Assembly (NCBI GenBank): GCA_965263355.1
Contig: CBDHHL010000056.1
Coordinates: 1,280,001-1,344,000, forward strand
Length of the DNA: 64,000 nucleotides
Direction: 5' to 3'
From: Leptolyngbyaceae cyanobacterium
Lineage (GTDB): Bacteria; Cyanobacteriota; Cyanobacteriia; Phormidesmidales; Phormidesmidaceae
The notes beneath the pieces are model-generated. The model ran no database searches, was not told the DNA's origin, and saw only the letters and a program-made list of their open reading frames with translations. Position numbers and translations under genes: made by a program. The number at the start of each line of letters is the position of its first letter. Position 1 is the stretch's first letter. Shown in pieces: positions 25,312 to 44,077 of the stretch.

Positions 25312-25404
25312 GGGCGTAAGCGTCGTTATGAAGATGTTGGCTTAGAGGCTTAATTGCTGTATTGCGATCGCAATTTCTATTCTCTGATAGTTTAACCACT
25401 ATAA

Positions 25405-25443: not shown

Positions 25444-25843
25444 CTCTTTCTATAACTTCTATCGTTAGCATGAACGTTATGTTGCGCTCATCAAAGTGTC
25501 ACCTTTTAGGGATAAAACAGCTTTATGAGTTTCATAATAATGAACAAGAAAGCTTGATGAACTTTCTTGTTTTGTTTTTGTATGTGCATCTTAACATTTT
25601 TGTATACGAATGCATGTATACGTCAACCGCTCCCTGTTTACTTGTGCGACGTTAACAGACAATCCAGACTTTAAACAAAGTGGGCAACTTAGCTTAAGCC
25701 ATGTCCAACGTTTAACCTGTAGCGTTACCTACAGAAAAAACAATTTTTCGGACGTGGATAAGATTTAAAAGGCTAGAGCTAGAGGTTTGAAGCGGTCTCT
25801 ACCAATACGTTTTATTCAAACCCAATTCTTCCCCACAAAAAAC

Positions 25844-26518
25844 ATGACGAATCAAATTCTAAAAGGTGCCCTATTTGCAGGGACATTAACTGTAGGCTTT
25901 TTGGCTCAAACTGAGTTTGCCAGTGCTGCATCTATTGTCTATGATTTTACCAGGTTTGGTGCCCCATTGATTGATGTTGCTCCTACTAGTTTTACTGCGG
26001 GTGGTGTGACTACCACTGTAAGCGGTAATGGTGTCGTGACCCAGACTGCTGCTGGTCTTGGTATTGCTAGACCCCTAAGTGTGGCTCCTCCAGAAGAGAT
26101 TGACGGTCTTGCTCTAAATGGCCCAGACTACATTGAGTTTGACTTTGGTAACATTTTTGTTGATATTGCCTCTGTGACATTTGGTTTGGTGGGCACCAAT
26201 GTGCCTATTCCAGGTATCGGTACCGTTGGTAATGACGACTTTAGCCTATCTGTCGACGGAAATTCTGTTCTGGAGAATACTGATATTCCTGGCGGTAATG
26301 GTTTAGACACTGGCGTTGGAGTCTTTGACTTTACATCAGTGTTGGCACCTTCAGGTAAGGTTTGGAGATTCACCGCGCCGGACCTGGATGATGATTTTAC
26401 CATTGCTAGCCTAACCATTGAGACTGAGGAGATTCCCACGCCAGCTTTACTACCTGGCTTAATCGGTATGGGAGTTGCGGCTTTTCGCAGACGTCGTGGT
26501 GATGTGTTAGATAGCTAA
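25844..26518 (+). CDS. PTPA-CTERM sorting-domain protein
   Basis: Signal peptide from ATG 25844 (MTNQILKGALF...ASA); C-terminus EIPTPALLPGLIGMGVAAFRRRR. Confidence 0.9.
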   Translation: MTNQILKGALFAGTLTVGFLAQTEFASAASIVYDFTRFGAPLIDVAPTSFTAGGVTTTVSGNGVVTQTAAGLGIARPLSVAPPEEIDGLALNGPDYIEFDFGNIFVDIASVTFGLVGTNVPIPGIGTVGNDDFSLSVDGNSVLENTDIPGGNGLDTGVGVFDFTSVLAPSGKVWRFTAPDLDDDFTIASLTIETEEIPTPALLPGLIGMGVAAFRRRRGDVLDS

Positions 26519-26572
26519 TGACATGTTAGTAATCATTAACTAAACAGTTAGGCCTGACCGCTGTGGAGTTAG

Positions 26573-26610
26573 CGAGGGTACTGTGACAATGCATCACAGC
26601 ACCCTCGTTT
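26573..26610 (+). terminator. hairpin terminator
   Basis: CGAGGGTACTGTGA-CAATGCA-TCACAGCACCCTCG-TTT. Confidence 0.6.
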
Positions 26611-26918
26611 CTGATTGAGATTTTTGACTAAGATAGCGTCAGGACATAAAAGATGTATTTTAGCGCAAATCTTATCGACTTTCTTTGTTAGATACTAATA
26701 ATACAATATTGTCTTATGTGGAGATAATTACTATAACTTAAGGTGGGTAATATTAAGATACAAAATGCCCCTATGTTACCTACTGTAAGATTTCAGGTTC
26801 TGTATCTCCTATCTTAGGTCAGTAGCTAGGTTGGGCCTTTAATTTGAGGGCTTAAACCCTTAACGATATCAACGAAACCTAGTTTTCATGTATTATTTCT
26901 CTCGGAGATGCTTGAATA

Positions 26919-27557
26919 ATGAAACTCAACCAATTTTGGAGTGCGGCGTTAGCTGTCTCCACATTTTCAACTGTTGCATTGGCTACACAAGAAGCGAAGG
27001 CGATGGCGCTATTTACCCTTGACTTCACGGATACTAGTCTCTTTACCAGAGGGACAGTCTCACCCGGTGATATTGATGGAATTGACTTAGGCGTTGTCAC
27101 CGTAGATGTACGAGGAAGAACTCGTGGCAGTAACCAGGCACAAGATCTTAGCTTCACCGGAAATGGTGTCGGTATTGTTGGGCATGGCAGTAACACTATC
27201 AACGGTTCCAATGGAGGGAGCTCTGATGAGCGTTTTCGCCTTGATTTTTCTAAGCAGGTGAAATTTACTGAGATTGTCTTTGGCAACGTTAATAATAACG
27301 GCAGTGATGATTATACCCTTAGAATAGATGGCAGTACTTTTGGGAGTGCCAATACTGATATCCCTCTTTCTGGTGTACTTTCACTTGATACTATTTTTGG
27401 TACTCGATTTGACGTTGAGGCACGCCAAAATAATGATAACTTTCGCATCACTAGTATTTCTGGTGAGGTGGTTCCCACACCTGCTCTTTTGCCTGGCTTA
27501 GTAGGGTTAGGTGCTGCCGCTTTGCGTAGACGTCGTCAAGAAGCCACTGACGCTTAG
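26919..27557 (+). CDS. PTPA-CTERM sorting-domain protein
   Basis: Signal peptide (..QEAKA); C-terminus VPTPALLPGLVGLGAAALRRRR. Confidence 0.92.
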   Translation: MKLNQFWSAALAVSTFSTVALATQEAKAMALFTLDFTDTSLFTRGTVSPGDIDGIDLGVVTVDVRGRTRGSNQAQDLSFTGNGVGIVGHGSNTINGSNGGSSDERFRLDFSKQVKFTEIVFGNVNNNGSDDYTLRIDGSTFGSANTDIPLSGVLSLDTIFGTRFDVEARQNNDNFRITSISGEVVPTPALLPGLVGLGAAALRRRRQEATDA

Positions 27558-27608
27558 AATCCACGTTAGGTGTAAACAGCTTATTTATTATGCATTAGTT
27601 GTTTAGCC

Positions 27609-27656
27609 AGTCAAGGTCTATTTTTATGTAGCCCCAGTAATACAAAGACCTTGACT
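27609..27656 (+). terminator. 3'-UTR hairpin
   Basis: AGTCAAGGTCT / AGACCTTGACT, 11-bp perfect stem. Confidence 0.65.
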
Positions 27657-27776
27657 ATGTGAGCCTATCCCATTGGTGCTAAATATAGACTCAGACTTGA
27701 TTATCAGCTTAATTGACGTCTTATCAATCTATTATTGTTCTACTTAACGTAGTCAAAAATTATACTCTTGCTAATA

Positions 27777-27910
27777 TTTGGAGATTTGCTGCGTCTGATT
27801 TAATGTTGATTTTACCATTGCCAGCCTAACCATTGAAACTGAGGCGAGTCCCTCACCAGCGTTGTTGTCTGGCTTATTTGGTTGGATTCGCAGCCTTTTG
27901 TAAGCGTTGA
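27777..27910 (+). pseudogene. degenerate copy of the 3' end of the PTPA-CTERM gene at 25844
   Basis: TTTGGAGATT...GATTTTACCATTGCCAGCCTAACCATTGAAACTGAGG.GA.TCCC.C.CCAGC matches 26361-26495 (DFTIASLTIETE..P.PALL.GL) with indels. Confidence 0.85.
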
Positions 27911-28260
27911 CTAGTTATTCGATCATCCAAATCTACTTTTATTGTGTATTACGGCTGTTGCTTGCAAGTCTGCTTCAGACTGAAATACTGTTCAGCAAGA
28001 AGAACTTTGCTGACTTCCTTTATCGAATATTTATAATGATATCTTGTCTTACTAAAAAGCGTTGTTATAATTTTGGATAAAGTCCATTGAGGGTAAGGAA
28101 CATACTTTTTAGAAGTTCTTTTACCCATACGTCAGATGATGTATCTCCCGGCTCAGAGTAGCTAAAATAATTTGTTCGTTTCAAGGTACAGGCTTATTTC
28201 TACAGATAGAATTGACCAATCCTAATTTGTTTCATGTAGTTTTTTGGGAATACTTATCCA

Positions 28261-28890
28261 ATGAAAATAGGTAAGCTGTGGAGTGCGGCTATTACTGCCT
28301 CTACTTTTTCTGTTTTAGCTTTTTCCGCTCAAGAGGTTAAGGCCATGTCCTTTACTCTTGACTTTACAGACAATAGTGTATTCTTTGGTGCGCCATCTAG
28401 CATTTCTAATGTTAATTTAGGCGGCGTCAATGTAAATGTAAATGCTACTACGCGTGGTGGTGAAGATAGTCGACTGTTGACCTTTAACAATGCTGGTGTT
28501 GGCATCTTAGGTGATGGCATAGACAACATTAGTGGATCAGCTGGTATAGATAACGATGAAGTGCTCGAGCTTACCTTTTCTAAATTAGTGAGATTCACGT
28601 CAATTAATTTTGTTGGTATTACGCCTGGTAGCGATGACTTTGCGTTAAGAATTGATGGCACTATTTTTGGTGCCGACCCTACTCCCATCAGTTCTAATGC
28701 GTTTAATTTCGTATCGCCAGGTACAGATTTTGGTGCCCTATTTAGGATTGAAACCCGAGACAATAACGATCGATTTCGTATAAATAGTATTTCTGGTGAG
28801 GTGATTCCTACGCCTGCACTGTTGCCTGGGTTATTAGGACTAGGTGTTGCAGCATGGCGTAGACGTCGTCAAGATGCAACTGATGCCTAA
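28261..28890 (+). CDS. PTPA-CTERM sorting-domain protein (paralog of 26919..27557)
   Basis: Shared FTLDFTD, FSK.V.FT.I.F, SDD..LRIDG, NND.FRI.SISGEV.PTPALLPGL.GLG.AA.RRRRQ.ATDA. Confidence 0.92.
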   Translation: MKIGKLWSAAITASTFSVLAFSAQEVKAMSFTLDFTDNSVFFGAPSSISNVNLGGVNVNVNATTRGGEDSRLLTFNNAGVGILGDGIDNISGSAGIDNDEVLELTFSKLVRFTSINFVGITPGSDDFALRIDGTIFGADPTPISSNAFNFVSPGTDFGALFRIETRDNNDRFRINSISGEVIPTPALLPGLLGLGVAAWRRRRQDATDA

Positions 28891-28939
28891 AGTAAAGCTG
28901 TAGTTTTATAACAGCTGATTATGTATCAGTCCTTTGCCC

Positions 28940-28988
28940 AGTGAAGGTCTATTTTCATTTTGGCTCTGGTAGTAAATAGACCTTCACT
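28940..28988 (+). terminator. 3'-UTR hairpin
   Basis: AGTGAAGGTCTATTT / AAATAGACCTTCACT, 15-bp perfect stem. Confidence 0.7.
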
Positions 28989-29175
28989 ATCTGTCTACCC
29001 CTGTCTCCTGCCCTGACTTATTCTGGGCTTCTCGGGCTATGGTTTCTTTTACTTTTCCCGGAGTGGTCGCCAACTCTTCAGTAAATTACTTAGATAGAGT
29101 ATGAAAAGATAGTCAACTATCTAAAACGTTTAACGGTGCCATCTGGAAAAATAGTCTAGTGTGGAGTAGAACGCT

Positions 29176-30096
29176 ATGAACTGGATGCAGCAGATTAGTC
29201 AAAGGGGGCTTGAGTGCCTAAAAGGCATTATAAAGACTAATCATGGGCGAATAGTGTTACTGGGCCTTTTTATTGGTCTGCTTTATTTTCCAGTGTGGGT
29301 ACATGATTTAGTGATTCGTTCGATTAGTGGTTCTACCGGACTAGCACTTATTTCCTGTGCCGCTCTGATGGCACTCTTTCCCCTATGGAAAAATCGCCGG
29401 TATTTAACCCAACTATCGGCCTCCGAGGAAGATCAAGTTATTGGCAACCTTCTAATTTTGGGAAGCATTGCTATCTTGCCATTTTTTTACTCAGAGATGT
29501 GGGCGAAAGCGTTAATTTGGTTATTTATTTTAATTGGGATTACCCTTAGCACCTGGGGTGCTGCATTTTTTGCTAAGTACCCGCTCACAACATTTTTGAT
29601 TCCGCTAACGGTTTACACTCGACCTGGCATCCTTGCGCAAGGGGCTTGGCGTTTTGTAATGCCCCCTGATTTTCTGGAAAATATTATGGCTGCCGCCAGC
29701 GTAAAGGTGTTGCAGTTGATGGGGCAAGCGGCTGTCGCCCAAGGGCGGTTTATTACCATGCCAACGGGGGGCGCAGTGGAAGTGGCCTGGCGTTGTAATG
29801 GTTTTAATATGGCAGTAGCTATGGCTGTAACCGGGTTGCTGCTAGGTATCTTTTTTAAGCGCACGCGATCGCAGATTGCGCGATTAATGGTAGTCGGTGC
29901 TGTTGTGGGTCTGGTATTTAATGTACCTCGGGTGATGCTAATGGCTATGGCCCATGCCTATTGGGGCGAATGGTGGTTTGACTTTTGGCATGGGTCCTGG
30001 GGCGCACAGATTTTTGTTGGGGTATTGTTTACAGTTTACTATTATGTGGCTATGGCAATGCTCAATAGACAAAAGCGCAGTCTAAAAAAGGGTTAA
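29176..30096 (+). CDS. crtC: cyanoexosortase (probably type C, PTPA-CTERM-associated)
   Basis: Multi-TM protein with exosortase triad: VEVAWRCNG (Cys), NVPR (Arg), FWHG (His); directly after the PTPA-CTERM genes. Subtype assigned from context. Confidence 0.82.
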   Translation: MNWMQQISQRGLECLKGIIKTNHGRIVLLGLFIGLLYFPVWVHDLVIRSISGSTGLALISCAALMALFPLWKNRRYLTQLSASEEDQVIGNLLILGSIAILPFFYSEMWAKALIWLFILIGITLSTWGAAFFAKYPLTTFLIPLTVYTRPGILAQGAWRFVMPPDFLENIMAAASVKVLQLMGQAAVAQGRFITMPTGGAVEVAWRCNGFNMAVAMAVTGLLLGIFFKRTRSQIARLMVVGAVVGLVFNVPRVMLMAMAHAYWGEWWFDFWHGSWGAQIFVGVLFTVYYYVAMAMLNRQKRSLKKG

Positions 30097-30245: not shown

Positions 30246-31484
30246 TTAATTCTTTAATCTACTGGCTAGTGTTTTATCAAAAACTTGCTGCGTAAGACGC
30301 AAAATACGTAGTACGTAGTATAAGAAAAATAAATTTGATGGTAGTTCTATAGTAGCCAAGTCTGCCAATGTTGGTTCTAAGAGCGTTAAACAAAAACGTA
30401 GACGTTGGTGCCAACCAGGCATTAATTTGAGTTGGTGGAGTGTATAGGATACTTCAAATTTTGATTGGAGGGAATAGTGTTCCTGAGTGAAGATACTCTG
30501 TTGGATTGCCTTAGCCACAGTGTGAGTACAAGTGGAGTTCATTAGCTGTTGTTGTATAGTGTCAGGTAATATAACCCCGCATAGATCTTGTGCTAAGCTC
30601 AGACCTAACAAAAAGCTAGGTAACATTCCTAAATCGTTTGATCTGTCAAGTAGATACTCCCAGTTTAGATTTTCCTGTGCTTTTATCAACATTGCCAAAT
30701 CGCAAATCTTACCCAAATGACACCAAAGATCTTCAGCACCTTGGGCACATGAGATAAGGATACTGATCTCTGGAGTAAGACAAATAACTTGACGTCCTCC
30801 AAGATTTATTGTCTGGGTGTGTTGCCAAATCCATCTGACGTCAAACAAATGGGAAAATTGTTTTGATAGAATACCTTGGTGAATATCTAGGAAGAATTGA
30901 CTTTTAGGATTATATAAGCTAAATTCTTTCTGCGACTTAAGATATTCAAACTGTTGTTGCTTACTCAGTTTTGCTAGGTACGTCCTTTCTGTGGCAGCCA
31001 TGATGGTGTCACATTGATATCCATGTTTAACTGCAATATCCCTGAGAACTAAAAAGTCATTTGGGGCAACCAATAAATCGAGGTCGGAGAACATACGAAG
31101 TGATAAATCTCCGTAGGCAATCTGCGCTATTGTTGGACCTTTAAAGGTGATAGATTTAATACTATGGGCATCTAAAATATCCAGAAACGCTATCAGCTCC
31201 TGTACTAGTCTGAAGTTGCGCTGAATAGTCTGTAGGTGTAGTCTACGTAATTCCTGTAGGATATGATCTGGTACCGCTTGAGAAGAGAAAGGAGAAAGAG
31301 ATTTATATAGTAACGGCAGTAATCTATGAAACCGTGCTAGTTTTAGTAGCTTTTCCCAGTCTATTTTTGACTGTTTTATAATCTGCTGTATCTGTGCCTG
31401 ACGATTTAAGTCTGGATCGACATTAATACAGTTCAGCAGTAAGGCTATTTCTGGTTTCAAGGTAGACATATTTAAATCGCCCAT
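30246..31484 (-). CDS. nucleotidyltransferase family protein (lasso-cluster type, PsmN/PadeN-like)
   Basis: IDWEKLL..A..H.L.PLL, FKGP..A...YGD..LR..SDLDLLV, DIH. Confidence 0.85.
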   Translation of the reverse strand: MGDLNMSTLKPEIALLLNCINVDPDLNRQAQIQQIIKQSKIDWEKLLKLARFHRLLPLLYKSLSPFSSQAVPDHILQELRRLHLQTIQRNFRLVQELIAFLDILDAHSIKSITFKGPTIAQIAYGDLSLRMFSDLDLLVAPNDFLVLRDIAVKHGYQCDTIMAATERTYLAKLSKQQQFEYLKSQKEFSLYNPKSQFFLDIHQGILSKQFSHLFDVRWIWQHTQTINLGGRQVICLTPEISILISCAQGAEDLWCHLGKICDLAMLIKAQENLNWEYLLDRSNDLGMLPSFLLGLSLAQDLCGVILPDTIQQQLMNSTCTHTVAKAIQQSIFTQEHYSLQSKFEVSYTLHQLKLMPGWHQRLRFCLTLLEPTLADLATIELPSNLFFLYYVLRILRLTQQVFDKTLASRLKN

Positions 31485-31528: not shown

Positions 31529-33358
31529 CTACCAATAGTTTTTAGCCTGAATTTCGAAGAGATAAGCATAGGTACGTTGCTGTCTCATAAGCTCCTGGTG
31601 AGTACCGCTCTCTACTATTCTGCCTTTATCCATTACATAAATCCGATCGGCCATCTTAACGGTTGAAAGGCGATGGGTAATTAAAATAGCGGCCTGATCT
31701 TGAATCAAATGTTTAAAGTTTCGAAATACTTCATATTCTGCTTTAGGATCCATTGCACTGGTAGGTTCATCCAAAACAATCAGTTGAGATTTTCGTAAAA
31801 AAGCTCTTGCTAAGGCTACTTTTTGCCACTGGCCTATACTAAGTTCTTCACCTTGATCAAAAATCTTACCGAGTATAGTGTCATACCCTGAGGGTAATCT
31901 TTGAATTACCTCATGGGCTCCTGCTTTCTTCGCTGCGAATACTACCTCGGGGGCATTTGATGCAAGCTGAGTGTTCCCAATCCAAATGTTATCATGTGCT
32001 GAGAAATGATATTTAGCATAATCTTGGAAAATGACACTTATTTGCTGTCGCATTTCTGTCACGTCAAATGTTCGCAAATCCATGTCATCAACTGTGATGC
32101 GACCACTTGTTGGATCATAAAGACGGCAAAGTAGTTTGATGAGACTGGTTTTTCCTGAACCATTTTCACCTACCAGGGCAACTGTTTCTCCTGGGTTAAT
32201 AGTTAGGGAAATATCTGTCAGGGCTTGGCGTTCAGTACCCTCATATTGAAAACTTACATTCTCAAACCGAATTCCTTTTTTTAAGGTTTTAGGAAATGCT
32301 TTTGGTTGAGCAGGAACTTGGATTTGAGGTTGTAAATCAAGGAATTCATAGAGGTTGGTCAAAAAGAGATTATCTTCATATAAGCCAGACACACTTTTTA
32401 CGAGTACTGCTAGTGCTGTGTGACCACGCTGCAGTGCCTGGTGATAAACCACTAAATCACCCAATTTTAGACGATTATTAAAGGTCTCATAAAGAATAAA
32501 GCCATAGATGGCTGCAATAAAAATACCCGTAATCAATTGGGCTGCTAGCGAATAAATAGCTTTATAGGTGACCAGTTTAAGTTTAGCGTTGTAAATCTTT
32601 TGGCGTAAATGGCGAAAACGTTGATTAAAGAGATCGCCTAAACTAAACAAACGTATTTCCTTGGCAAATAACTCTCCGGTTAATAGCCAGCCCAAATACA
32701 TGGACTGACGGTCAACAGGTGTCCATTTTCGTTGCCAATGATAAAGTTTACGAGAGTAAATTACTTTAACAGCCAAACTTGGTAAGGCTGCTAGTAGTAA
32801 AATGCCTGTGATGCCCCAATGAAGAGTGAGCAGCAAGCCTAGCATGGCGGCTAGAGAGATGAGGTTTTGCCCTACCTGAGCCAGTCTAGTGAGAATTTGA
32901 TTGGGGCGATAGGTAGCTTCTTGCTGAGCACGCTGTAAAGTGTCGTGATAGCGAGCATTTTCATAATAAGCAAGATCTACCTCATAGGATTTGGCATATA
33001 AAATATGCCGCATATAGTCTGATACTTTCTGTGTTTGAGCGACTGCTATCAGCTCAGAAAAAGATGTGCAGAGTAACGTAATTAAGGCAATAAGACTAAT
33101 GGCTAATAAAGGTGGCCATAGTTGGGGGAATACATTAGTGAGCGTGTCTGTTGCATTCGCTGCAACTAATGCCTCAGTAAGTGAATCTACAATGAGTTTC
33201 GTCAGATAGATAGTGGCGGTGGGTAAAAGACCTTGTAATATGATGAGAGCAACCCGAACCACTGTCCACTTTGGACTACTTTGCCAGACCAGTTGTAGTG
33301 CAGGCCGTAGCAAACTAACGAATTTAAGTTTTTTCCTGACATATCTTAAAACTTGCAT
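31529..33358 (-). CDS. ABC exporter, fused permease/ATPase (lasso D-like)
   Basis: TM domain, AKEIRLF, GENGSGKT, LSIGQWQKVALARAF, LDEPTSAMD. Confidence 0.92.
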   Translation of the reverse strand: MQVLRYVRKKLKFVSLLRPALQLVWQSSPKWTVVRVALIILQGLLPTATIYLTKLIVDSLTEALVAANATDTLTNVFPQLWPPLLAISLIALITLLCTSFSELIAVAQTQKVSDYMRHILYAKSYEVDLAYYENARYHDTLQRAQQEATYRPNQILTRLAQVGQNLISLAAMLGLLLTLHWGITGILLLAALPSLAVKVIYSRKLYHWQRKWTPVDRQSMYLGWLLTGELFAKEIRLFSLGDLFNQRFRHLRQKIYNAKLKLVTYKAIYSLAAQLITGIFIAAIYGFILYETFNNRLKLGDLVVYHQALQRGHTALAVLVKSVSGLYEDNLFLTNLYEFLDLQPQIQVPAQPKAFPKTLKKGIRFENVSFQYEGTERQALTDISLTINPGETVALVGENGSGKTSLIKLLCRLYDPTSGRITVDDMDLRTFDVTEMRQQISVIFQDYAKYHFSAHDNIWIGNTQLASNAPEVVFAAKKAGAHEVIQRLPSGYDTILGKIFDQGEELSIGQWQKVALARAFLRKSQLIVLDEPTSAMDPKAEYEVFRNFKHLIQDQAAILITHRLSTVKMADRIYVMDKGRIVESGTHQELMRQQRTYAYLFEIQAKNYW

Positions 33359-33392: not shown

Positions 33393-34256
33393 CTACCCTA
33401 AATCTGTTTTGATGGTGTTGATAAGCTCAGGTAATTGTTGCAATGATTGCCTTTTGGGTAGTTGTGCTACAGGCACTGTTTTTAGTAAATGTTGACACTG
33501 CTCAAAATGAGTCCGCATAAAGTCTGGCCCCACCAGCGTATTCATAGTGCGTGAATAGCTTACCAAGCTCATAAAAGCCTGCGCACCTGAGACAGGTTCT
33601 ATCGTTGTTGACGATTCGCCACCCAATAGATACAGCTTCTTTAAAAGGATAGAGCGCTCAAAGAAATGAGTTTCTACTGGATGGATTCGTTTATTTGTAG
33701 AAGCGCCAAAGTCTATGGGAGAGTTAAGATGCTTTGCAGCAGTCACAGCTGAATCAGGCAAAAGCTTTACGAGTGGATAACTGGGAATAGCAAAGCATCC
33801 CTTCGTTTGAATATCAACGGTTAGGACATCATCGGTAATCAGGTCATGGCCCTGGCTATGAAATGCTGTTGCTAGGGTAGATTTTCCCCAACCTGAATGA
33901 CCTAGAAAAGCAATCGCTTCAGATCCAATGCGAACACTACTGCCATGTAAAATCAGATAACCTCTCTGGCGTAGGATAACAGACATGCCAGCAGCTAGTA
34001 CACTAACTCTGAGAAGTTCAGAATCAACATTTGCAACAGGAGAGACAATTAGCTCGCAGCCCTCCTTAAATAAAAAGTTAGCAATATCAGGTAAAGAGCC
34101 ACATAGTTGATTCGTTGTGTTGAGCTGCTCTTCTTTGCTTAAATCTAAAGTCTCGAGTCTTATATTTACATCTGGTTTATCTGATAGAGGTTGAGTATTT
34201 AGCAGTGATATATCACTTGAAATTGTTAGGCCGTATGCACTAAATAGATAAGCCAT
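33393..34256 (-). CDS. HPr-kinase-like lasso peptide kinase (PadeK/PsmK-like)
   Basis: YGL.I.S, LRQRG..ILHGS, GHSGWGKSTLA Walker A, LITDD; directly downstream of the precursor. Confidence 0.85.
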   Translation of the reverse strand: MAYLFSAYGLTISSDISLLNTQPLSDKPDVNIRLETLDLSKEEQLNTTNQLCGSLPDIANFLFKEGCELIVSPVANVDSELLRVSVLAAGMSVILRQRGYLILHGSSVRIGSEAIAFLGHSGWGKSTLATAFHSQGHDLITDDVLTVDIQTKGCFAIPSYPLVKLLPDSAVTAAKHLNSPIDFGASTNKRIHPVETHFFERSILLKKLYLLGGESSTTIEPVSGAQAFMSLVSYSRTMNTLVGPDFMRTHFEQCQHLLKTVPVAQLPKRQSLQQLPELINTIKTDLG

Positions 34257-34375: not shown

Positions 34376-34400
34376 CAGCCCCCGGATTATCCGAGGGCTG
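34376..34400 (-). terminator. stem-loop directly after lasso precursor
   Basis: Minus strand CAGCCCUCGGA-UAA-UCCGGGGGCUG, 8 nt after the stop, followed by UUAAUAAAA (weak U tract). Confidence 0.65.
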
Positions 34401-34407: not shown

Positions 34408-34578
34408 TTAAAGCGTGGTGTTAACGATTACATCATTAGAGCCAGTTTGATTAAGACCTAATAATGGATTACCATTAACAATAGTTGCATCAGACTGAGG
34501 TGCGCCTCCTGTAGCCTGAGTAAGCTCCTTTGCATTCCCAAAAGAGTTAAGCTTGGGTGCCTTGTATGCTTTCTTCAT
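34408..34578 (-). CDS. lasso peptide precursor (A), 56 aa, not in ORF track
   Basis: Manual translation MKKAYKAPKLNSFGNAKELTQ-ATGGAPQSDATIVNGNPLLGLNQTGSNDVIVNTTL; leader YxxPxL motif, Gly, Thr at -2; Asp9 in core; GGAG RBS 8 nt upstream; lies between cyclase and kinase. Confidence 0.92.
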   Translation of the reverse strand: MKKAYKAPKLNSFGNAKELTQATGGAPQSDATIVNGNPLLGLNQTGSNDVIVNTTL

Positions 34579-34708: not shown

Positions 34709-36736
34709 TCATCCAGTCTCCTTAGATTCAATAAAAGAGAACCAAATTGCCATTGTCATCGCAGACCAGATAATGCCGCTATCTTTTTCAGAAAGCTCTT
34801 GATTGCTCACAAAAAGCCTGCTGAGCTTTAGAAAGAAACTATAATTAATATAGTTGCTGATTAATGCTTCAGAATCAGAGAGTAGTTTTTCTAATCTAGT
34901 CTTATCAAATTTATTTAAAGTTCCATGAAATGCCTGTGCTGGAGTTTTTTTCCAATGACGCCATTGGATTTCGTGGGGTAATATATTTTCCATGGCTCGT
35001 CTTAAGATTACCCTTGACCAACCTCTATAAAGCTTCTGCTGAGATGGAACAGCAAGACAAAACTCTACTAATCTTTTATCTAAAAATGGATAGCGAGTTT
35101 CAATTGAGAAGGCGTAGCTCATCAGATCCATTATTTCTAAAGGGATTATAAAGAGACCTCCTGAAATTTTTTCCCATTGTCTATATCGAACAACTTGAGG
35201 TCCATCATGCGTAGTTTGTGGCGCTGATGTAGATCTTTTATTTTTTATGAGATCCCAGAAATCTTCTCTAATCAGAGATTGTGATTTATCTTTATCTATT
35301 TCTTTCCTCTGTCTTACCCAGTTATCTCTGCAGAATATCGCAAATTCTTTAAGCAATCCTGGTATCAATCCCTTTAAACAATAATCAACCACCAGTTGAG
35401 CTTTAGAAATGCATAACATGGGAGCAAGGTTATTTATAGCTCTAGCAATTAAAATAATCTTGCGTTGTTCTACTAGTTTTTCTAGTTGAGGTAATCCATG
35501 CTGTTTAGCTAGCAAAGAAAGCGGATAATTAGTCTTCTCACTTAGTTGATTAGCCTCTTGGACAAAAAGGTGCCATTGATTTTGACAGGCAATTTCTGTC
35601 AACCTCATGATTCCATGGGAAACGATGGTATCACCGTCAAACCCATTCAAAAGAATACGAACATCGGTTTGCTTCGCCATTTTATTGATGCCCCACATTA
35701 AATATCCATTGCCAATGGTGGGTTCTTCAACAGACTTAAACATTTCTACGCAGTTTGTCAGTGGTCCTGAGCGATCAGCATGGATGTAGTGGGGGATAAA
35801 ATCGTCATGATTGAGCACAAGGTCAATATATTCACGCTCATCAGACTCAGGAAAGTCATCAAAAATGTTAGAAAACGTATGTAGTTCTTGTTTTCCATGT
35901 TTCTGTAATAGGTTGCGAGCGGTGCAGGCAATAGATGAGGAGTCTAAGCCGCCACTCAGGTGGGAACCAATGGGAAACGCACTACGTAACCGACAATACA
36001 CGGCCTCTGTAAACAGCTTTTTGAAAGTTTTGGCGTAGTCTTCGTCAGATTCTAAGCAAATTTCACGGGTGGGGTCTAATGCCCAATATTTTTGAGGTTT
36101 GGAATATCCTTGAGCTGTGACGATTAGGCTGCTAGCAGGGGGTAAACGCCAAATATCTTGATACGAGGTGATCTCTTTGTCGTCTAGGTGACCTGTGAGA
36201 TAGTCTGCAATTCTTGCTTCGTTGATTTTGCAAGGAATACTTGATAGTCGTATTAATGCTTTAATTTCTGAAGCAAAAAGAAATCGGTGGTCAGATTTAT
36301 AGTAGTAAAAAGGTTTGACTCCAAAATGATCGCGGGCACAAAATAGCTGCTGTCCATCCCAAATTGAAAAGGCGAAGTCTCCAAGTAAATGATCAGGACA
36401 ATCTGTGCCCCATTTTTCATAGGCTGCCAAAATAAATTCGCTATCGGCAATCTTCTCTAATGGTCGATTGGGTAACGTTAGTACTCTAGCTAGCTCATCC
36501 CGGTTGTCAATACGTGCTTCAGCAGTGATCGATAAATTACCCTTTACCAAAGGGAGCCGTTCATTGAGTGATTCCGGGGTTGTCCAGAGCATACGGTGGC
36601 CCATACCGACGGAGCCGTCATACCAGATATCAGAGCTATCAGGACCACGATGGGCTAAAATTTCAACCATTTGATGTAGCTCATTGGCGTCTATTAGCTT
36701 CTGATTTAGATGGTATATACCGACAATACCACTCAT
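34709..36736 (-). CDS. lasso peptide cyclase (C), asparagine-synthetase-like
   Basis: HRGPD, ARIDNR.EL, ARDHFGVKPFYY, LSGGLDSS, GFDGD, PFLDKRLVEF; begins MSGI (no glutaminase Cys); overlaps B2 by 4 nt. Confidence 0.92.
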   Translation of the reverse strand: MSGIVGIYHLNQKLIDANELHQMVEILAHRGPDSSDIWYDGSVGMGHRMLWTTPESLNERLPLVKGNLSITAEARIDNRDELARVLTLPNRPLEKIADSEFILAAYEKWGTDCPDHLLGDFAFSIWDGQQLFCARDHFGVKPFYYYKSDHRFLFASEIKALIRLSSIPCKINEARIADYLTGHLDDKEITSYQDIWRLPPASSLIVTAQGYSKPQKYWALDPTREICLESDEDYAKTFKKLFTEAVYCRLRSAFPIGSHLSGGLDSSSIACTARNLLQKHGKQELHTFSNIFDDFPESDEREYIDLVLNHDDFIPHYIHADRSGPLTNCVEMFKSVEEPTIGNGYLMWGINKMAKQTDVRILLNGFDGDTIVSHGIMRLTEIACQNQWHLFVQEANQLSEKTNYPLSLLAKQHGLPQLEKLVEQRKIILIARAINNLAPMLCISKAQLVVDYCLKGLIPGLLKEFAIFCRDNWVRQRKEIDKDKSQSLIREDFWDLIKNKRSTSAPQTTHDGPQVVRYRQWEKISGGLFIIPLEIMDLMSYAFSIETRYPFLDKRLVEFCLAVPSQQKLYRGWSRVILRRAMENILPHEIQWRHWKKTPAQAFHGTLNKFDKTRLEKLLSDSEALISNYINYSFFLKLSRLFVSNQELSEKDSGIIWSAMTMAIWFSFIESKETG

Positions 36737-37170
36737 CGTTTGACTCCTATTGCAGATAGTGGTTTAAATCGATTCAAATCCTTTAACCAGCCAATGATGA
36801 CCTGGTTTTGATATTCGATCCAGGCATGGGCTTCTAAGTCATTTGAATCACTTTTGGCAACACCAATATGTAACTGATGGTCATAGCCATATCGATTGAG
36901 CAGGAGTTGAGCTGTTAGTGCCTTTACCAAACATTTAGCGCCTCCGGGAGTGTAGTGGCTGCTAAGGGTAACGGCCCATATAATAAATCTCAAAGAGACT
37001 GACTCATGCTCACAGGTCCACACAGAAGTAATCTGTGCTAATTGATGTCTAACTGTATTGAAAGAAAATAGCCACAGGGCAAGACGCAAACTGTTAATCA
37101 GCAAACAAGCGTAGCAAATTACCTTGCGCTCATGCCATGACAAGCTCCATAGCTTAGATAGACGTCTCAT
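36733..37170 (-). CDS. lasso peptide leader peptidase (B2), transglutaminase-like
   Basis: KCLVKAL (Cys), L.IGV, AHAWIE (His). ATG at 37170 overlaps the end of B1. Confidence 0.92.
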   Translation of the reverse strand: MRRLSKLWSLSWHERKVICYACLLINSLRLALWLFSFNTVRHQLAQITSVWTCEHESVSLRFIIWAVTLSSHYTPGGAKCLVKALTAQLLLNRYGYDHQLHIGVAKSDSNDLEAHAWIEYQNQVIIGWLKDLNRFKPLSAIGVKR

Positions 37171-37462
37171 CACTGACCTCAATCAGACAAGCTGCTTTCA
37201 TATCTTCAAGAATCCGTGTAAGGTCTTGTTTGCAGATGTCGGGTTCTACATCATATTCTGCAACTAATTTTTGATATATATCGTCAAAGGAACAAGGTTG
37301 CTGAATGAGTTCCCAGATACGTGCTCCTACTTCATTCAGGCCATAGTAAATACCTGAAGTCAAATTTAATATGATTGCTTCTCCCCCTAACTCAGATGCA
37401 ATTTGATCTTGAGCTGGTGAAATAGTCGCAATTGATGAAATATCTCCAATCTGTAAAGACAT
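37154..37462 (-). CDS. lasso peptide RiPP recognition element (B1), PqqD family
   Basis: GEAIILNL.SG.YYGLNEVGARIWELIQ...EYDV.....DL...L. Confidence 0.92.
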   Translation of the reverse strand: MSLQIGDISSIATISPAQDQIASELGGEAIILNLTSGIYYGLNEVGARIWELIQQPCSFDDIYQKLVAEYDVEPDICKQDLTRILEDMKAACLIEVSDETSI

Positions 37463-37661: not shown

Positions 37662-38999
37662 TTAAGAGGCTTGCTTGAGGCATAGCTCATGCCAGCGCAG
37701 ACCAATTAACACGATACTGGTTAATGCAAAGCCAGGTTCTTCCATCAGAGTAAAAATGAAACCATTAACTAAAAAGTTCAGTACTAAGAATCGAGATACA
37801 TCATCTCTACAGGTTTTTCTCCAGGTTATGAACCATAAGGCGATATAACTAATCAAACCTAAAAATCCTAAATCTCCCCAGATGCCAGCCCAACCCCATA
37901 ACGGTGAGAAAAAGCTAGAGTCTAGGTAATGCCCTTGCCAGGCTTCCCATACTGCCTCACTAGCTGGATGGATTGTTGCGCCTAGTGACCCAACCAAGGA
38001 CCAATAATCTTTAAGCATCCAACCGCCAATGCGACCAATGGTATGTCCAGGACCTAAGCCCAGTAGCCAGTGGAAAGCAGAGGTATAGTAGGTAGGAATA
38101 ATTCTTAAAGGTTCAGTTTTCAAGAGGGTAGCATCACCATTAGGACCGTAAATCTCAGGGCGAATCCAAGTTTGATAAGCATGAAAAAGTTCTACATTAT
38201 AAATGCACCAGTAGAATGCATAACCGATTAAAAGTGCTGCAATGATATATTGAAAGGCGACTCTAAGGTCGGTAATCTTACTAAGGATCAGACATCCCCA
38301 AGCCAGAATCGCTACAAAAAGTACTTGTTTAGCATCTGCAAATAAGATTTGGCTTAGGACTGCGCCTAGTACAGAAATACGTACCCAAAGTGGTACCGTT
38401 TTGGCACTAACGTAGTAATACAGGCCAAATACTAAAGACGCACTAGCACCGACTACATGGCCGCCGGAGGATAAGTAAAAGACACCCTGAACATTGTCTT
38501 CAAGGGTCATGCGGGTATGTCTGAGCAGCCCCGTTTCCAAGCCAACTTTTTGGCTCAGTGCTAATCCAATATGAATAGCTCCAAAGCCAAGAATCCACTT
38601 TTTGAAACGGCTGAGAGATTCTGTTGTGAATGGAATAGAAATTATCGCTGTTAAAAAGATAAAGGGTTCTGAAATAATCATGAGCCCAAGAAAGACGTTA
38701 ACTAGCCCTGCATTATTTAGTAACGCACTGGCGGTTGCGATCGCAAACAATCCCATTAATCCACTAATCAATGCCTTCACAATAGTCAGCTGCTGTCGGT
38801 TTTGTCGTCGACTGCTAAACACAACCAAACTACAGGCAACAGGTGCCACCATAAAATGAACAAAATTTATTGGAGCCGGAGCCCCAAGTGACTGAAGAAT
38901 TCTTGGAAAAAAGGCAGCTGCAAATGCAATTATTAACAAGCGTGAGCTTGAAATAAAGCCTGCTTCTGCTTTGGAACGAGGGAGAGATTGAGTCTGCAT
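37662..38999 (-). CDS. polytopic membrane protein, probable Wzy polymerase / O-antigen-ligase-like
   Basis: About 11 hydrophobic segments, large late periplasmic loop, LLGLGPG and GDLG.LG motifs; last gene of the GT run. Confidence 0.6.
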   Translation of the reverse strand: MQTQSLPRSKAEAGFISSSRLLIIAFAAAFFPRILQSLGAPAPINFVHFMVAPVACSLVVFSSRRQNRQQLTIVKALISGLMGLFAIATASALLNNAGLVNVFLGLMIISEPFIFLTAIISIPFTTESLSRFKKWILGFGAIHIGLALSQKVGLETGLLRHTRMTLEDNVQGVFYLSSGGHVVGASASLVFGLYYYVSAKTVPLWVRISVLGAVLSQILFADAKQVLFVAILAWGCLILSKITDLRVAFQYIIAALLIGYAFYWCIYNVELFHAYQTWIRPEIYGPNGDATLLKTEPLRIIPTYYTSAFHWLLGLGPGHTIGRIGGWMLKDYWSLVGSLGATIHPASEAVWEAWQGHYLDSSFFSPLWGWAGIWGDLGFLGLISYIALWFITWRKTCRDDVSRFLVLNFLVNGFIFTLMEEPGFALTSIVLIGLRWHELCLKQAS

Positions 39000-40225
39000 T
39001 ATGGCAATATGGCCGCTGATGTTTGGGCAGATAAAGAAACTGGTAACAAGTTAGAATAGATAGATACCAGTTGCTTATAATTTGCTGTGGCTGTATAGTT
39101 CGCTTCAAACTCGGCACGGGCATTCCGCCGCATCTGTGCACATGCATCAGGCTGATTTAACATCCAAGTGACTTGACGTGCTAAATCACTCGAGTCGCCT
39201 GGGTTGAAATGTAAACCGGTATAGCCAGATTTCACAATTTCTGTAATGGCACCGATTTTAGAGGCAATCACAGGAGTGCCTGTTGCAAATGCTTCTACAG
39301 CTACACGACCAAACGTTTCGTACCATTTAGAAGGAAATATCAAAAACTTGGCTTCCCCCATCAGCTGATGTACTTCAGCCATAGGCCGACGGCCTAACCA
39401 TTCTATGTGTGATTGTTGTTGAGCTGCTTCAGTTACCAATGTAGACAGAGGGCCATCACCGACAACTTTTAGTGGAAAGGATACGTTTAACTGCCGCCAT
39501 GCAGCCAGTAGAGTATCTAAGCCTTTTTCCACTGATAAGCGACCTACAAAAAGGGCGTAATTACCTTTGCCATTACCTACACTTGGTTCTGGAGCAACAA
39601 AGTTTGGTTTGACCACAATTTTGTTGGCAGATAGACCTCCTTCAATAAATTTTTGACGTGCAAACTCTGTCAATGCAATATAGCGATCGACTTTACTATG
39701 CCAGGTATTTATGGCTCTATGGGCTGACAGCATAGCTGCCACTCCTGCACTGGCGATGCGATTTTCTCGATAACAGCCGTGCATAATGCCTGGGTAGGGA
39801 ATCGGCTTGCCGACACATGATTCACACACTTGGCCTTGCCGAAAAAATAGCCCATTAGGACACACCAAACGATAGTTATGCAGGGTTTGGACTACAGGAA
39901 TTCCTTCCGCCTTGGCTGCGTAATAAATAGAAGGGGAGATAAGGGGAAAGAAGTTTTGGACATGCACAATATCGTAGTGATTTTGCGAAAGGCTTTGACG
40001 AATGGTCTGATACGTTTTTTTCGACCAAACAGTCTGCGCTGCTAGCGTTAGTTTAGTAGCCTGAGAAATACTGTCGTTGTTTTCTTCGTAGAGGTCTACA
40101 TGGTGCCCATGCTGGCGCAACAGTTCCACCTCGGCTTCGTAGCATTCTTCTTCGCCACCTCGAATTTGATAGCGGTTGTGAACCCCTAGGATACGCATGT
40201 GCAATTTAGTCCAAGCTTTCTTCAA
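38999..40225 (-). CDS. glycosyltransferase family 4
   Basis: HNRYQIRGGEE, TLHNYRL.CP, VGRLSVEKG, PSKWYETFG...EAFA.GTPVI. Confidence 0.92.
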   Translation of the reverse strand: MKKAWTKLHMRILGVHNRYQIRGGEEECYEAEVELLRQHGHHVDLYEENNDSISQATKLTLAAQTVWSKKTYQTIRQSLSQNHYDIVHVQNFFPLISPSIYYAAKAEGIPVVQTLHNYRLVCPNGLFFRQGQVCESCVGKPIPYPGIMHGCYRENRIASAGVAAMLSAHRAINTWHSKVDRYIALTEFARQKFIEGGLSANKIVVKPNFVAPEPSVGNGKGNYALFVGRLSVEKGLDTLLAAWRQLNVSFPLKVVGDGPLSTLVTEAAQQQSHIEWLGRRPMAEVHQLMGEAKFLIFPSKWYETFGRVAVEAFATGTPVIASKIGAITEIVKSGYTGLHFNPGDSSDLARQVTWMLNQPDACAQMRRNARAEFEANYTATANYKQLVSIYSNLLPVSLSAQTSAAILP

Positions 40226-40714
40226 ATCTACACAATCTCGCTCAAAAGTCAGGGCAGTTTATGAGATATATTCTAAACACCTGAAATGTTGCCATCCAGA
40301 CCTTTCAAGGTGTGCTGGCAATAAGTTTTACATTTGGACGAAGCTATCATTTGGTAAGGATTGGGACCTTACTCTGTAATTTAGACTGGCAGGTCAAATG
40401 TACTATTTTTAGATAATTTTGGCTAGTTTAGAGCTACGTAAGAAGTAATACTCCAAAAAAATAAACTATTGCTATCAGGAACCTTGAATTTATAGACAAA
40501 GCTTTCTTAAACTTTGAAAGCTAGGTTTATTTCCTAGAGAGGCTTTTGAAAATTATTAAAAATATTCATTTGACCTTGAAAGGGCTGATGTTGATATCCT
40601 AAAATACCTATACGGAAAAATAAATACTGCACTTATCTGCAGAAACTCTCTAGTAGTAGCTCGTGAGCTACCTACTATGAACAACCCTCAGTTAATACAT
40701 TTCCTTGATACAAG

Positions 40715-41740
40715 CTATGCTTTCTTGCTAGAAGAATAGCCCAATACTTGTGGCACAAACCTTTTCATAAAAATTGAAATACACACAGTAACAAAAGTTG
40801 CTAATGCAGTATAAATTATTGCTATCCCGATCCCCTTATCAAATATTGCTTTGTCTATATTCAATCCATATACTAGGAAGCCTGTAATTAGAGGAATAAC
40901 TAAGAGATGAGTTGAAAAAATAACTAATGTGTTTTCACCGATAATTGAGAGCACAGGATTATGTGGGATTAGTTTAGAAATAAAAGAAAATAAGAAGATT
41001 CCAGAAAATGCAGCTATATAAAACAAAAAATAGTTACCATAATCGCCTATATAAAATTCCACAGTAGAATTCAGAAAAGCTGTGAGTATAAATACCAAAA
41101 GCAATATAACTGCTATATACCAGCGTTGAATCCAAAGTTGATCATTACTATGTAACTGAAAACTAAGAATATAACCTACAGTAAAGAATACGAGTCCAGT
41201 CAAAGAAATTCCTAGGTTCCAAGGTATTGCTATGCCTTCAGGTGCCTTACACATATACCCAAGCACGGATATAGGCAGTAGCATAAAAGTGAATAAGAAC
41301 TTTCTGTTTCGTAATTTAAATAAAAAATAAAAATATATCTGAGTCGTAAATAATGCAGTAAAAAACCAGAGAGCAACATTATTACTAATCCATCCTTCCA
41401 CAGCTGTACCATAAAAAATACCAATCAATGCTTTTGGTGGGTCAAATGATTGAGCCTTAAAGTTTTGAAGAAAAAAAAGCCATATAAAAAAGGTTGATAT
41501 TGAGAAGAAAAGGTAGGGAATTAATAATCTCTGAGCCATCTTCTTTAAAACTAAAATAAATTTTTCCTCATAGAAACTGTCTTTTACTAAAAGCCCTGAA
41601 ACAAAGAAAAATAGTGGTATAAAAAAAGACTTTATATAAACTTCAAACCACATTCCACTAACACGACCTGTATGTACTAAAACTACTAATAAAATCCCAA
41701 TTGCACGTAGATTATCTATCCAATATATCCGCTTACTCAT
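40715..41740 (-). CDS. acyltransferase family 3 (polysaccharide O-acetyltransferase)
   Basis: RIYWID.LRAIGILLVV..H, PLFFFVSG, RLLIPY, LWF; about 10 TM segments. Confidence 0.9.
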   Translation of the reverse strand: MSKRIYWIDNLRAIGILLVVLVHTGRVSGMWFEVYIKSFFIPLFFFVSGLLVKDSFYEEKFILVLKKMAQRLLIPYLFFSISTFFIWLFFLQNFKAQSFDPPKALIGIFYGTAVEGWISNNVALWFFTALFTTQIYFYFLFKLRNRKFLFTFMLLPISVLGYMCKAPEGIAIPWNLGISLTGLVFFTVGYILSFQLHSNDQLWIQRWYIAVILLLVFILTAFLNSTVEFYIGDYGNYFLFYIAAFSGIFLFSFISKLIPHNPVLSIIGENTLVIFSTHLLVIPLITGFLVYGLNIDKAIFDKGIGIAIIYTALATFVTVCISIFMKRFVPQVLGYSSSKKA

Positions 41741-41875
41741 AGTATTTTAATGGTATAAATTTAGTATAAAAATATCTTTTTTGATAACATCTTGAAAATT
41801 CAACTGTAAATAATAAGCGTGGTTTTTCAGGAGCTACGACAAAAAGAATTCTCTAAACTAAAGAATAAATTGGAG

Positions 41876-43138
41876 CTATAGTTCTAATTTATTCTTTGTA
41901 GCCTCCGATAACTCTTGATATAGCTGACTTAACTCTTGTCCTTTGGCATACCAACTGTACTGCTCTTTTATCAGTCTCTTCCCTGCTTCACCCATGTTTT
42001 TTCGCAAGTTAGAGTCTTTGGCCAAGCGAGCCATAGCATCACTTAAATCTTTGATCACTTGCTCTGGCGCATGGGCAACAATCCTAAATCCAGTTTCATC
42101 AGTAACCTGTGCGGCAGGACCTCCAAGGTCTAAACACAAAATCGGTCGTCCCGCTGCCATGCCTTCCAAACAAACCCAGCCACCAGAGTCATGTAGGCTA
42201 GGATGTACTAGCACATGGCTTTGGGCAAGTTTTTCTAATGTTTGCTCACGAGGCAGTCGTCCCCAAAATTTAACTTTGTTGGCAACGCCTAACTCTTTGG
42301 CCAATGCCTCAAAGTTTTCCATTTCAGGGCCGTCACCTAAAATCCAATATTCGGCATTAAGTAAGTTAGCCTTAGCAAAGGCCTTAATCCCTAAGTAAAA
42401 TCCTTTCCAATGCAGCAGACGTCCCATGCTGATAAAGCGCAAAGGGCCATCCTCTGGCAATGGACAGTGGTTTAGTTTTTCTATTTCTTCTAGGGCTAGG
42501 CCAGACTCTGATGCTATTTGTACCTGAGTAGCTCCCATTTTACTAAGTTGCTTTGCTGTATCTTGAGTAGTTGCACGTACCACAGCACTACGCTGTGCTG
42601 TTAACCGAGTAAAGGGATCAATTTCACCGACTTTATGAGCTAGCCAGCGCAGTTTTTCATACCGCTTTGCCTTGGTACTAAAGTCTTTGAAAAAGGGTTT
42701 AGGTGCTTGTTCACCACCGCCTACAGGTCCCCATACAAAAGGAATGGGCAATAGAGAGAGCCAGCTGGGTGTTGAATAACGGACAAAGGTAACATGGTGA
42801 GCCACGTCAAAGTTAATCTCTTTATGTAAGCGACGAGCCACAAAATAGGCCTGAATTTGCCAAAGATAATAGTGAATTTGCATTGCACCAGATTGCCCCA
42901 GACGCATGCTATCTTGCCAGAAAGGTAGAGTAAAATAGACAAATTTCAGATTTGGAGTTGGATTGCGAGCAAGTTCTGCTTCGATGGCGTCTTTACTTTC
43001 ATCGGGACGAGTCAAAGCCCAAACCTGATGATGTCTAGCCACTTCACGAACAATGTTCCAGCCAACACCTGGTTCGGATCCTTTGCCAGGTTCACATGAA
43101 TACGCTGATATAAGAACTTTCATGAGTACTGCTTCCAA
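41876..43138 (-). CDS. glycosyltransferase family 4
   Basis: SAYSCEPGKGSEPGVGW, WGPVGGGE, GRLLHWKG, PSLHDSGG...EGMAAG.P. Confidence 0.92.
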   Translation of the reverse strand: MEAVLMKVLISAYSCEPGKGSEPGVGWNIVREVARHHQVWALTRPDESKDAIEAELARNPTPNLKFVYFTLPFWQDSMRLGQSGAMQIHYYLWQIQAYFVARRLHKEINFDVAHHVTFVRYSTPSWLSLLPIPFVWGPVGGGEQAPKPFFKDFSTKAKRYEKLRWLAHKVGEIDPFTRLTAQRSAVVRATTQDTAKQLSKMGATQVQIASESGLALEEIEKLNHCPLPEDGPLRFISMGRLLHWKGFYLGIKAFAKANLLNAEYWILGDGPEMENFEALAKELGVANKVKFWGRLPREQTLEKLAQSHVLVHPSLHDSGGWVCLEGMAAGRPILCLDLGGPAAQVTDETGFRIVAHAPEQVIKDLSDAMARLAKDSNLRKNMGEAGKRLIKEQYSWYAKGQELSQLYQELSEATKNKLEL

Positions 43139-43207
43139 AATATTCAGCTATAGAGATAGCCACTTAGATTGATACTGCTGACTACAAATTTATAGAACAA
43201 GAGGAGA

Positions 43208-44077
43208 TCAGAGACTTATTTGAGACTGGCAAATAGTCCAAAAAGATGTGCCATGTGGAACCGCAACACAATTCCATGACCTTTCAACTTCTAAGTCCAA
43301 CATTCCATCACTTCGGAGTCTAAAAATCTTATATTTATCCTGACTCAGGATAGTTTGGATTACATCTAGTTTAAAGTGCTTTTTGCTTATATGATTATAC
43401 TCAAATATTATTAGTGGGCTATTTTTTCTGATAAATGTTAGTCCACCTCTAAGAACGTTCGGCTCAAACCCTTCTACATCAACAAGCATAATTGGATTTA
43501 AAACATCCTTCGGCAGCTCACTATCAAGAGTTGTTGGATAATAAACTTCTGCCTCTAAATCAGTTCTATAATCAATTACTCCAGAACCTTTTTGATTCCC
43601 CTTTTTATTATCAAAATACAAAGGAGAATTAGAATCACTGACAACAGCATCTATGACTTTAGCATCATGGAAATCGTTCAATTGCAGTGTTTTTTTAATA
43701 CTTTCAGAACATTCTTTAATCGGTTCAAAAGCATATATTTTCCTCACTTTTTTATAAGGAATCATACTTACAACCATCTCACCGATATTGGCACCCACGT
43801 CGATAAACTCACAAGATTCGGGAATATTTTCAACAACATGTTTTAGAATCTTATGCGTTTCAGGCTCTGTCCAGCAATCAGAAATGAGTTTATTATAGCA
43901 GGTAGATACTTTATGATTGAAATGCATCTTTCTGCCTTTAATGGTAAAAAAATGATCATCTCTAACTTGCTCTAATAGAAATTTATGTCCCTTTATCTGA
44001 ATTCCAAATATCTCTTTTAAAGACTTAAAAAGATAGCCGTATAATCTTGCAATCAGGAAAAACATATTGACAAGCAC
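43208..44077 (-). CDS. FkbM family methyltransferase
   Basis: FIDVGANIG, AFEP, VDVEGFE, IIFE. Confidence 0.9.
   Translation of the reverse strand: MLVNMFFLIARLYGYLFKSLKEIFGIQIKGHKFLLEQVRDDHFFTIKGRKMHFNHKVSTCYNKLISDCWTEPETHKILKHVVENIPESCEFIDVGANIGEMVVSMIPYKKVRKIYAFEPIKECSESIKKTLQLNDFHDAKVIDAVVSDSNSPLYFDNKKGNQKGSGVIDYRTDLEAEVYYPTTLDSELPKDVLNPIMLVDVEGFEPNVLRGGLTFIRKNSPLIIFEYNHISKKHFKLDVIQTILSQDKYKIFRLRSDGMLDLEVERSWNCVAVPHGTSFWTICQSQISL

Follow-up and report, generated by a model that had tools for sequence, protein, structure and literature searches.

An invariant internal serine in a family of long predicted cyanobacterial lasso peptides, with neighbouring genes for a kinase and a nucleotidyltransferase

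The closest described counterparts of the cyanobacterial locus analysed here are the pseudomycoidin cluster of Bacillus pseudomycoides (psmCAKB1B2ND; PMC6993621) and the paeninodin cluster, both with the same seven gene types as found here, including a kinase and a PF14907-type enzyme, an Ala1-Asp9 ring, weak plug residues and a hypothesised lock by modification. In the absence of K and N, pseudomycoidin is obtained in unthreaded form; Leu21 fails to hold the tail, Phe21 holds it, and a phospho-hexose lock was put forward by the authors as a hypothesis (PMC6993621). The same paper also refers to a cyanobacterial cluster that includes a homologue of PsmK. The bsf cluster of Bradymonas sediminis (PMC10368454) is likewise composed of A, B1, B2, C, D, K and N, and its kinase BsfK targets Ser3 within the ring; together with LppK, which also uses a Ser3 (PMC13381572), it puts internal Ser residues on record as kinase sites. 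The known lasso kinases act on the intact precursor (PMC9266682, PMC10368454). Among long lasso peptides, pandonodin (class IV, 33 aa) and achromonodin-1 with its 20-aa loop (PMC13352647, 10.1101/2023.06.21.545946) are the nearest in kind, their clusters not being described as phosphorylated in the available text of these sources. Predicted lasso cores span 12 to 160 aa, and the lasso peptides with a solved structure, 47 in number, belong to three phyla, none of them cyanobacterial (PMC12214591). A cyanobacterial core predicted to have 36 residues, from genes in the A-C-B2-B1 adjacency also found here, has already been published (PMC9332814). The open-access main texts covered (among them PMC9576775, PMC12639078 and PMC12480086) yielded neither a characterised cyanobacterial lasso peptide nor a description of the tail Ser considered below.

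The window, a stretch of 64,000 nt from a Leptolyngbyaceae cyanobacterium, holds a complete cluster in the order B1-B2-C-A-kinase-ABC-nucleotidyltransferase, all genes lying on the same strand within an exopolysaccharide locus (Table 1). In keeping with membership of the lasso peptides, intact RRE, peptidase and cyclase genes are adjacent, and the core carries its Asp acceptor at position 9. The best relatives of cyclase C are 44–50% identical, the named ones being cyanobacterial; like the marker genes of the surrounding locus, they suggest a cyanobacterial origin. The glutamine-amidotransferase-like N-terminal domain of the cyclase is full-length, and its second residue is Ser in all 49 sequences aligned, a position at which asparagine synthetases have Cys. 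The kinase retains an intact His104...GxGKS...Asp-Asp motif, its spacing being equal to that of the BsfK catalytic motif (PMC10368454). Family searches revealed no peptidase domain in the ABC exporter and no peptidase other than B2 in the cluster.

Table 1. Features of the lasso peptide cluster and its surroundings (positions in the 64,000-nt window).
Feature	Position	Strand	Evidence or content
PsmN-like nucleotidyltransferase	30246..31484	-	PF14907 178.9 bits; DxD motif present
MsbA-like ABC exporter	31529..33358	-	domain search
HprK-like peptide kinase, 287 aa, directly downstream of precursor	33393..34256	-	weak HprK family matches below cut-off
11-bp RNA hairpin directly 3' of precursor stop	34376..34400	-	z -4.3
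Lasso precursor A, 56 aa (leader 21 aa, core 35 aa)	34408..34578	-	NF033528 37.9 bits, cut-off 33
Core: predicted Ala1-Asp9 ring, predicted I12-V13-N14-G15-N16-P17 hairpin, invariant Ser26	34411..34515	-	
Leader with YxxPxL and Thr(-2)	34516..34578	-	Thr(-2) 54/54
Lasso cyclase C, 675 aa	34709..36736	-	NF033535 848 bits, cut-off 525
Leader peptidase B2	36733..37182	-	NF033537 97.6 bits, cut-off 33; Cys and His-Ala-Trp motifs present
Leader-binding RRE B1, PqqD fold	37154..37462	-	PF05402; NF033536 78.4 bits, just under cut-off 80
Convergent block downstream	23883..30096	+	priming sugar transferase, HpsJ-like C, three PTPA-CTERM proteins, cyanoexosortase C
Wzy-type polysaccharide locus	37662..62649	.	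~9-TM orphan, six GT4 glycosyltransferases, FkbM methyltransferases, acyltransferases, Wzx flippase, WecG, Wza, Wzc

The initial annotation had described the 56-codon open reading frame as an unannotated lasso precursor. The frame, its division into leader and core, and the YxxPxL and Thr(-2) elements of the leader were found just as described, and the frame is a real cyanobacterial lasso peptide precursor gene. The word "unannotated" applies to the list of open reading frames used at that time, but not beyond it: the frame is already called as a protein (P0001), and its score exceeds the curated cut-off of the NCBIfam model NF033528 (lasso_cyano, cyanobacterial lasso peptide; Table 1), so that the precursor belongs to an already modelled family. 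It is the sole precursor of this kind in the window, as the family profile run against 1825 six-frame segments gave an E-value of 2.5e-23 for it and of 3.1 for the next best segment, and its leader weakly resembles the leader peptides of solved lassos (best E 0.011). A ribosome-binding-like GGAG is located 9–12 nt 5' of the ATG, and none of 200 shuffles was as stable as the hairpin behind the stop codon, which probably has a stabilising or attenuating effect on the precursor transcript. A promoter scan remained at chance level (18 matches versus 23 in shuffles). Contigs of sequencing run X1 contain the precursor without differences, base 34480 being uncovered, and X1 may itself be the source of the window.

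A full phmmer search with the precursor returned 14 relatives, and a profile built from 12 sequences then gave 49 matches among 124 candidates, 39 of them new. The resulting set comprises 54 precursors including the query; counts that concern the tail refer to 53, P0129 (44 aa) being left out since it ends before the tail. The family is not a single clone (22 clusters at 60% identity). Many of its members carry the name 'lasso peptide' in the genera Scytonema, Plectonema, Tolypothrix and Rivularia; named relatives include KAB8330902.1, NJM71423.1, MBD2605343.1, MCV3215229.1, MBW4477280.1 and BDA71993.1. The NF033528 cut-off was passed by the query and 48 of the 52 relatives scanned (49/53). 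One relative with an accession adjacent to that of its cyclase, and six more for which a cyclase match is found on a contig of equal length, suggest that the linkage of precursor and cyclase is shared. Elsewhere the yield was low. Scanning genome contigs with the precursor gave 3 unrelated weak matches, a first metagenome scan and two viral scans gave none, a plasmid search gave 5 records, none cyanobacterial, a single-sequence word search recovered the query alone, and a fold search with the predicted structure gave nothing at E <= 0.001; an atlas search with relative P0144 led to unnamed clusters only. A second metagenome scan produced 80 loci, mostly with generic asparagine-synthase-like genes, and the lasso precursors found there were rejected as family members, their similarity lying in the leader and the precursors belonging to other families. 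Other lasso precursors do end in Ser (L008, 2539-2891; L011, 1977-2132; L014, 187-396), two of them with a core Asp10 followed by G-F-T-F-M-G and one with a predicted two-Cys core of about 46 aa.

Inspection of homologous precursors for conserved positions, a check that the initial annotation had suggested, proved informative. Thr(-2) is kept in all 54 precursors, the acceptor Asp stands at core position 9 in 52 and at position 10 in the other two, and Ser26 is present in 53 of 53; with these three positions invariant, the earlier reading of a lasso precursor cleaved after Thr-Gln and closed to an Ala1-Asp9 ring holds and is well supported. The core starts with Val, Ala or Ile in 52 of the 54 and has Gly at position 3 in 50, where Ser and Thr never occur; Asn14 is kept in 47/53 and Gly15 in 51/53. 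An alternative cleavage at core Thr2-Gly3 was dismissed, as it would place the Asp at position 6 and Thr2 is kept in only 8/53. In P0172 and P0175, the two relatives with the acceptor at core position 10, positions 7–9 lack Asp and Glu, predicting a 10-residue ring. Cyclisation of the precursor is highly probable.

Two further statements of the initial annotation fared less well. The "26-aa tail" denotes the 26 residues after Asp9, that is, loop plus tail rather than the tail alone, and the internal echo SDATIVN/SNDVIVN was matched or beaten by 4324 of 10,000 core shuffles (p 0.43), so that we attribute it to chance and reject it as a meaningful repeat. The claim of an unusual length survives in one respect: 35 aa exceeds the 33 aa of pandonodin, the longest characterised lasso peptide (PMC13352647). 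Within the family, though, where cores range from 29 to 54 aa, it is below the median of 43, with 38 of 53 cores being longer than 35 aa; in comparison with pandonodin and achromonodin-1, 45 of the 53 predicted cores are above 33 aa, and the query has no Cys, aromatic or basic plug.

Ser26 belongs to a G-S-x-D-hydrophobic motif: the residue before it is Gly in 41 cores and Asp in 12, the second residue behind it is Asp in 46 of the 53 or Asn in 6, and position 29 is hydrophobic in nearly all. The Ser lies at core position 24–27 in 47/53. In no other query-aligned column does Ser or Thr reach more than 39/53, and at the column with that count the query has Leu; in relative P0151, the core has no second Ser. 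A profile truncated before the GS motif still recovered all 39 new relatives at E <= 4.7e-8, and thus the conservation of Ser26 is not an artefact of the search, although any candidate still needed short words in common with the initial set. The 35 positions of NF033528 cover leader, ring and hairpin, with the tail Ser and the Cys-pair subtype outside the model. Nineteen cores, the query among them with 9, are Cys-free and have 5–10 residues behind the Ser, while 34 of the 53 contain exactly two Cys, both behind the Ser, with 15–27 residues after it and the first Cys at Ser+4/+5 in 33. In these 34 relatives (e.g., P0156, P0165 and P0171), the two-Cys extension lies right behind the invariant Ser, cores measure 41–54 aa and the Cys spacing is 7–17; they are predicted to be very large class IV-like lasso peptides, the Cys pair being a possible counterpart of the tail disulfide of pandonodin.

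Against this background, the family differs from each of the described systems. It shares the kinase and the PsmN-like enzyme with paeninodin and pseudomycoidin, but the leader has YxxP instead of the WxxP of that subfamily (PMC13381572), the cores are 29–54 aa long, and the modified Ser, there the last residue, would here be followed by 5–27 residues, since none of the 53 cores ends in Ser and that of the query ends in Leu. Nor does it have the traits of the Bsf subfamily (Ser/Thr at core position 3, Ile/Val(-2)): the bsf cluster resembles ours in gene content, kinase motif spacing and an internal Ser site, yet BsfK modifies ring Ser3 of a precursor with Ile(-2) (PMC10368454), whereas the candidate site here is in the loop or tail and Thr is found at -2. 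The single tail disulfide of class IV has no basis in the query, which has no Cys.

Taken together, the complete cluster, the intact catalytic motifs, the presence of Ser26 in 53/53 and the lack of any core ending in Ser support a working model to which we, as a whole, give about an even chance; direct observations are confined to genes, intact motifs and conservation. B1 would bind the leader, and the kinase, probably with the help of B1, would phosphorylate Ser26 on the linear precursor, with a timing as for PadeK, PsmK and BsfK. B2 would then cut after Gln(-1), and C would close the nine-residue Ala1-Asp9 macrolactam round the C-terminal part. In the loop, residues 12–17 probably fold into an Asn-Gly hairpin, such that the strand is predicted to cross the ring between residues 18 and 25. 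By analogy with pseudomycoidin, the PsmN-like PF14907 enzyme would be needed to add one or two hexoses to the phosphate, the ABC transporter would export the product, and the decorated Ser26, as a bulky group, would act as tail stopper. The monoisotopic mass calculated for the full core is 3403.72 after cyclisation, 3483.69 with a phosphate added, 3645.74 with one hexose on it and 3807.79 with two. The individual steps differ in their likelihood. Ser26 is probably the kinase site, its pairing with a kinase gene being seen in this window; the transfer of a hexose to the phosphate falls slightly short of an even chance, and that the modified Ser26 is what holds the threaded form is a tentative and rather doubtful proposition, both being argued by analogy. 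The initial annotation had considered a lock by an added group as its second option, and this option gains a concrete candidate not named there: Ser26, encoded in a cluster that also comprises kinase and nucleotidyltransferase genes. On the other side, Ser26 is part of a motif of small residues and could be kept for folding or cyclase fit, and the Cys pair in 34/53 relatives is a possible alternative stopper, yet the Ser is retained.

How such a peptide would be held in the threaded state is a matter of the plug. The core indeed has no F, Y, W, R, K or H, as stated initially, a property it shares with only two other cores (3/53 including the query). Aromatic residues occur just after the ring in 43/53 cores, but between Asp+7 and Ser+5, F, Y or W is found in only 6/53 and is absent from 47; in 11 of the 19 Cys-free members, none of the six residue types occurs after the turn. 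The missing aromatic plug is thus true of the query but no peculiarity of it, being a family property of the region around the tail Ser, and non-aromatic lower plugs are not rare: 14 of the 20 residue types occur at this site in the 47 solved lassos (PMC12214591), so that Ile, Val or Leu might suffice. Two AlphaFold2 models, of the precursor and of the core only, both show a hairpin at residues 12–17, at low confidence (pTM 0.34); together with the Asn-Gly motif, this suggests that these residues are loop rather than plug. An S8-T24 bridge seen in the precursor model was rejected, as the core-only model did not reproduce it, and the threading register was therefore not located.

These data bear on three other explanations, the likelihoods of which, like that of the surface-polymer role taken up below, overlap and do not sum to one. 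According to the first, the product is a class II lasso of the ordinary type, kept in place by residues of the peptide itself, either the conserved Asp-Ile/Leu/Val stretch (29–31) or, in relatives, a tail disulfide loop; any phosphate or sugar on Ser26 would serve solubility, export or recognition instead of locking. We regard this as somewhat unlikely, roughly on a par with the sugar-phosphate lock itself: D28 (46/53), the hydrophobic position 29, the wide range of plug residues in solved lassos (PMC12214591) and the class IV-like Cys pair behind the Ser are all in line with it, but Leu failed to hold the tail in the closest characterised Ala1-Asp9 system (PMC6993621), and the query and 18 relatives are devoid of Cys.

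Alternatively, the mature product might be a branched-cyclic (lariat) phospho-glycopeptide, threading being transient or irrelevant. That unmodified pseudomycoidin is unthreaded (PMC6993621), that three cores including the query are without any aromatic or basic residue, and that related kinase-nucleotidyltransferase systems operate without a cyclase (LPP; PMC13381572) would fit such a product. However, the cluster encodes an intact cyclase whose score exceeds the lasso cyclase cut-off by a wide margin, and the spacing between Asp and Ser is tight (17 in 37/53, 16–18 in 46/53), as expected of a folded substrate, which makes a lariat unlikely in our view.

Less probable still is that the C-terminal nine residues are a follower whose removal leaves a 26-mer ending in Ser, paeninodin-like and of ordinary size. 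The Ser position would be near the pseudomycoidin length in the 47/53 cores mentioned above, and carboxypeptidases often trim lasso tails (PMC13352647), but B2 is the sole peptidase found in the cluster, the residues behind the Ser are conserved, paired Cys included, and the characterised kinases use the intact precursor (PMC9266682). Our preferred reading is phospho-glycosylation of Ser26 as the tailoring step of the family.

The genomic surroundings add a further aspect. The lasso cluster lies embedded where a run of glycosyltransferase genes ends, in the same orientation as these, and the polysaccharide locus is upstream of it. Directly upstream of B1, a 445-aa protein with about nine predicted membrane helices (37662-38999, minus strand) has no Pfam or NCBIfam match and is a candidate Wzy polymerase or glycan ligase. 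A fourth PTPA-CTERM protein of the 20892-30096 region is encoded on the minus strand (20892-21305). Further away, the segment 11931-19929 contains a pair of phosphonate-type ABC transporter operons in convergent orientation, along with genes for a GntR/UTRA regulator and a phosphodiesterase, and two minus-strand frames are without a confident family match (387 aa, 21964-23127; 337 aa, 54160-55173). It is conceivable that the peptide is a surface-polymer component, the nucleotidyltransferase activating phospho-Ser26 as attachment point for a Wzy-type glycan and the lasso acting as capsule or slime anchor, primer or cross-link. Besides the position of the cluster, with Wzx, Wza, Wzc and cyanoexosortase C nearby, it would agree with this role that the paeninodin and LPP clusters are co-localised and co-expressed with capsule genes and that their native products escaped MS (PMC13381572). 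Yet the argument is one of neighbourhood, a Wza/Wzc match was present in only 2 of 17 lasso-type metagenome loci, most of them short, and the 445-aa membrane protein is without a family match; we consider this role improbable, if somewhat less so than trimming to a 26-mer. The most far-reaching version, in which lassos of 29–54 residues, larger than any characterised, are widespread in cyanobacteria, an internal-Ser sugar-phosphate holds their mechanical bond and the same Ser links the peptide to exopolysaccharide, appears very improbable at present.

Part of the picture was thus already known, as the family corresponds to an NCBI model and internal kinase sites exist elsewhere; the length is ordinary for the family and the echo is due to chance. 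What remains, as judged from sequence, is an internal Ser that is invariant throughout the family and has kinase and nucleotidyltransferase genes nearby, and Cys-free cores offer little else by which a nine-residue ring could be locked. A phospho-sugar in place of a bulky residue as the lock of a lasso has been an open proposal since 2019, and the query is a clean test case for it, with one candidate tail Ser, no aromatic, basic or Cys residue, and all pathway genes within a single 7-kb block. Should the full-length product be made, the query would exceed the 33-aa record, and its relatives of up to 54 aa with a predicted tail disulfide would make roomy scaffolds. Finally, the finding bears on the question of why lasso clusters of the kinase type are located within polysaccharide loci.
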